Source: Chloroflexota bacterium (GTDB taxonomy: Bacteria; Chloroflexota; Anaerolineae; Promineifilales; Promineifilaceae). From it: a stretch of 64,000 nucleotides of DNA. The stretch is from the NCBI GenBank assembly GCA_024277135.1, contig JAJRVV010000103.1:1207-65206 (forward strand). The letters are read 5' to 3'. The stretch itself is not shown here. The text below is the continuation of a report on this DNA, generated by a model with database tools.

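Follow-up and report, generated by a model that had tools for sequence, protein, structure and literature searches.

Palindrome usage and the word's neighbours in sequence space

Many 6-bp palindromes are extremely under-represented across the window (1-64000) when observed counts are set against an order-2 Markov expectation. GGGCCC occurs once against 41 expected, CCCGGG twice against 33, and GCATGC, ACGCGT and CTGCAG once each against 17, 17 and 14, respectively, while AGGCCT (16 expected), TCGCGA (13), CGTACG (12), GAGCTC (9) and GTCGAC (6) do not occur at all. This avoidance suggests that the lineage is, or has been, under strong restriction pressure. CGGCCG, the core of the 8-letter palindrome ACGGCCGT (hereafter the word), shows the strongest excess among all 64 6-bp palindromes in the window under the same model, with 209 copies observed and 84 expected. 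After the word, the commonest 8-mers in the window are CCGCCGCC, CGCCGCCG and GCCGCCGC, which reach 58-72 copies with both strands summed and are triplet-periodic G+C words. One part of the dGTPase-like HD gene at 13541-14761 carries a 15-bp tandem duplication that includes the word, ACGGCCGTTCTCCCC ACGGCCGTTCTCCCA (13976-14005).

Variants and flanks in relatives and in phage and plasmid-like contigs

A sister variant of the word, CCGGCCGG, is present in 14 copies within 7.7 kb of the compared locus L033 (1-7700), whose phosphoglycerate kinase is 72 % identical, and in 8 and 5 copies in loci L055 and L030, respectively. For another variant, GCGGCCGT, pooled over the cellular loci (n = 78), we looked at the flank gradient, the strand-symmetric composition slope that is G-rich 5' and C-rich 3' of cellular copies of the word. 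The 5' flank of this variant is still G-rich (+0.18) and the 3'-side gradient is almost gone (-0.06). The outer A of the word may be eroded by G-ward flank pressure.

The word itself is found at 17-37 copies per 10 kb in phage and plasmid-like IMG/VR contigs (L106, L091/L095, L104, L113, L097 and L110), and the flank gradient is absent around it in these contigs. When copies of the word are set aside, GGCC is rarer than expected in L106 (65 vs 99). The viral locus L105 carries a further sister variant, W-CGGCCG-W, with outer bases T.T in 9 copies, A.T in 8, and A.A and T.A in 6 each. In L007, a relative of 3.56 Mb, the word is sparse, at 6 per 10 kb, and the flanks of its copies show no gradient. 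Upstream of murJ, L007 also encodes a bAvd accessory protein adjoining a reverse transcriptase (4716-6412), a pairing typical of a diversity-generating retroelement.

DNA modification genes and low-GC3 regions of the window

The window encodes an apparently orphan D12-class N6-adenine DNA methyltransferase (1927-2799, minus strand), which most resembles DpnM (E 1e-63) and the Dam enzyme of E. coli and is on that ground assigned to the GATC type. It is adjoined by a class-I SAM methyltransferase (2803-3696) and by a 574-aa protein without family (188-1912), a homologue of which (56 % identity) adjoins murJ in L007.

A minus-strand region at 29700-43700 has low GC3 and a G+C content of 49.7 %. 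It encodes a pair of TPR proteins, each about 1000 aa long (30621-33635 and 35582-38665), two family-less proteins and a radical SAM/SPASM peptide maturase (33700-35286); at 41547-43118, also on the minus strand, an OmpR-type winged helix is fused with a P-loop ATPase of Sll1717/DS41_1 anti-phage type. The region resembles a RiPP or defence island. Low GC3 and an absence of the word are seen in two toxin-antitoxin-like pairs, BrnT/BrnA(CopG) (10191-10749, minus strand) and nucleotidyltransferase/HEPN (18948-19860, plus strand), whose short length makes these features uninformative.

Finally, of O6-methylguanine methyltransferase a 142-aa protein (61015-61443, minus strand) has the DNA-binding domain alone. 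Because PWQR replaces the active-site PCHR, this protein resembles a damage sensor of the alkyltransferase-like (ATL) kind rather than an active Ogt.
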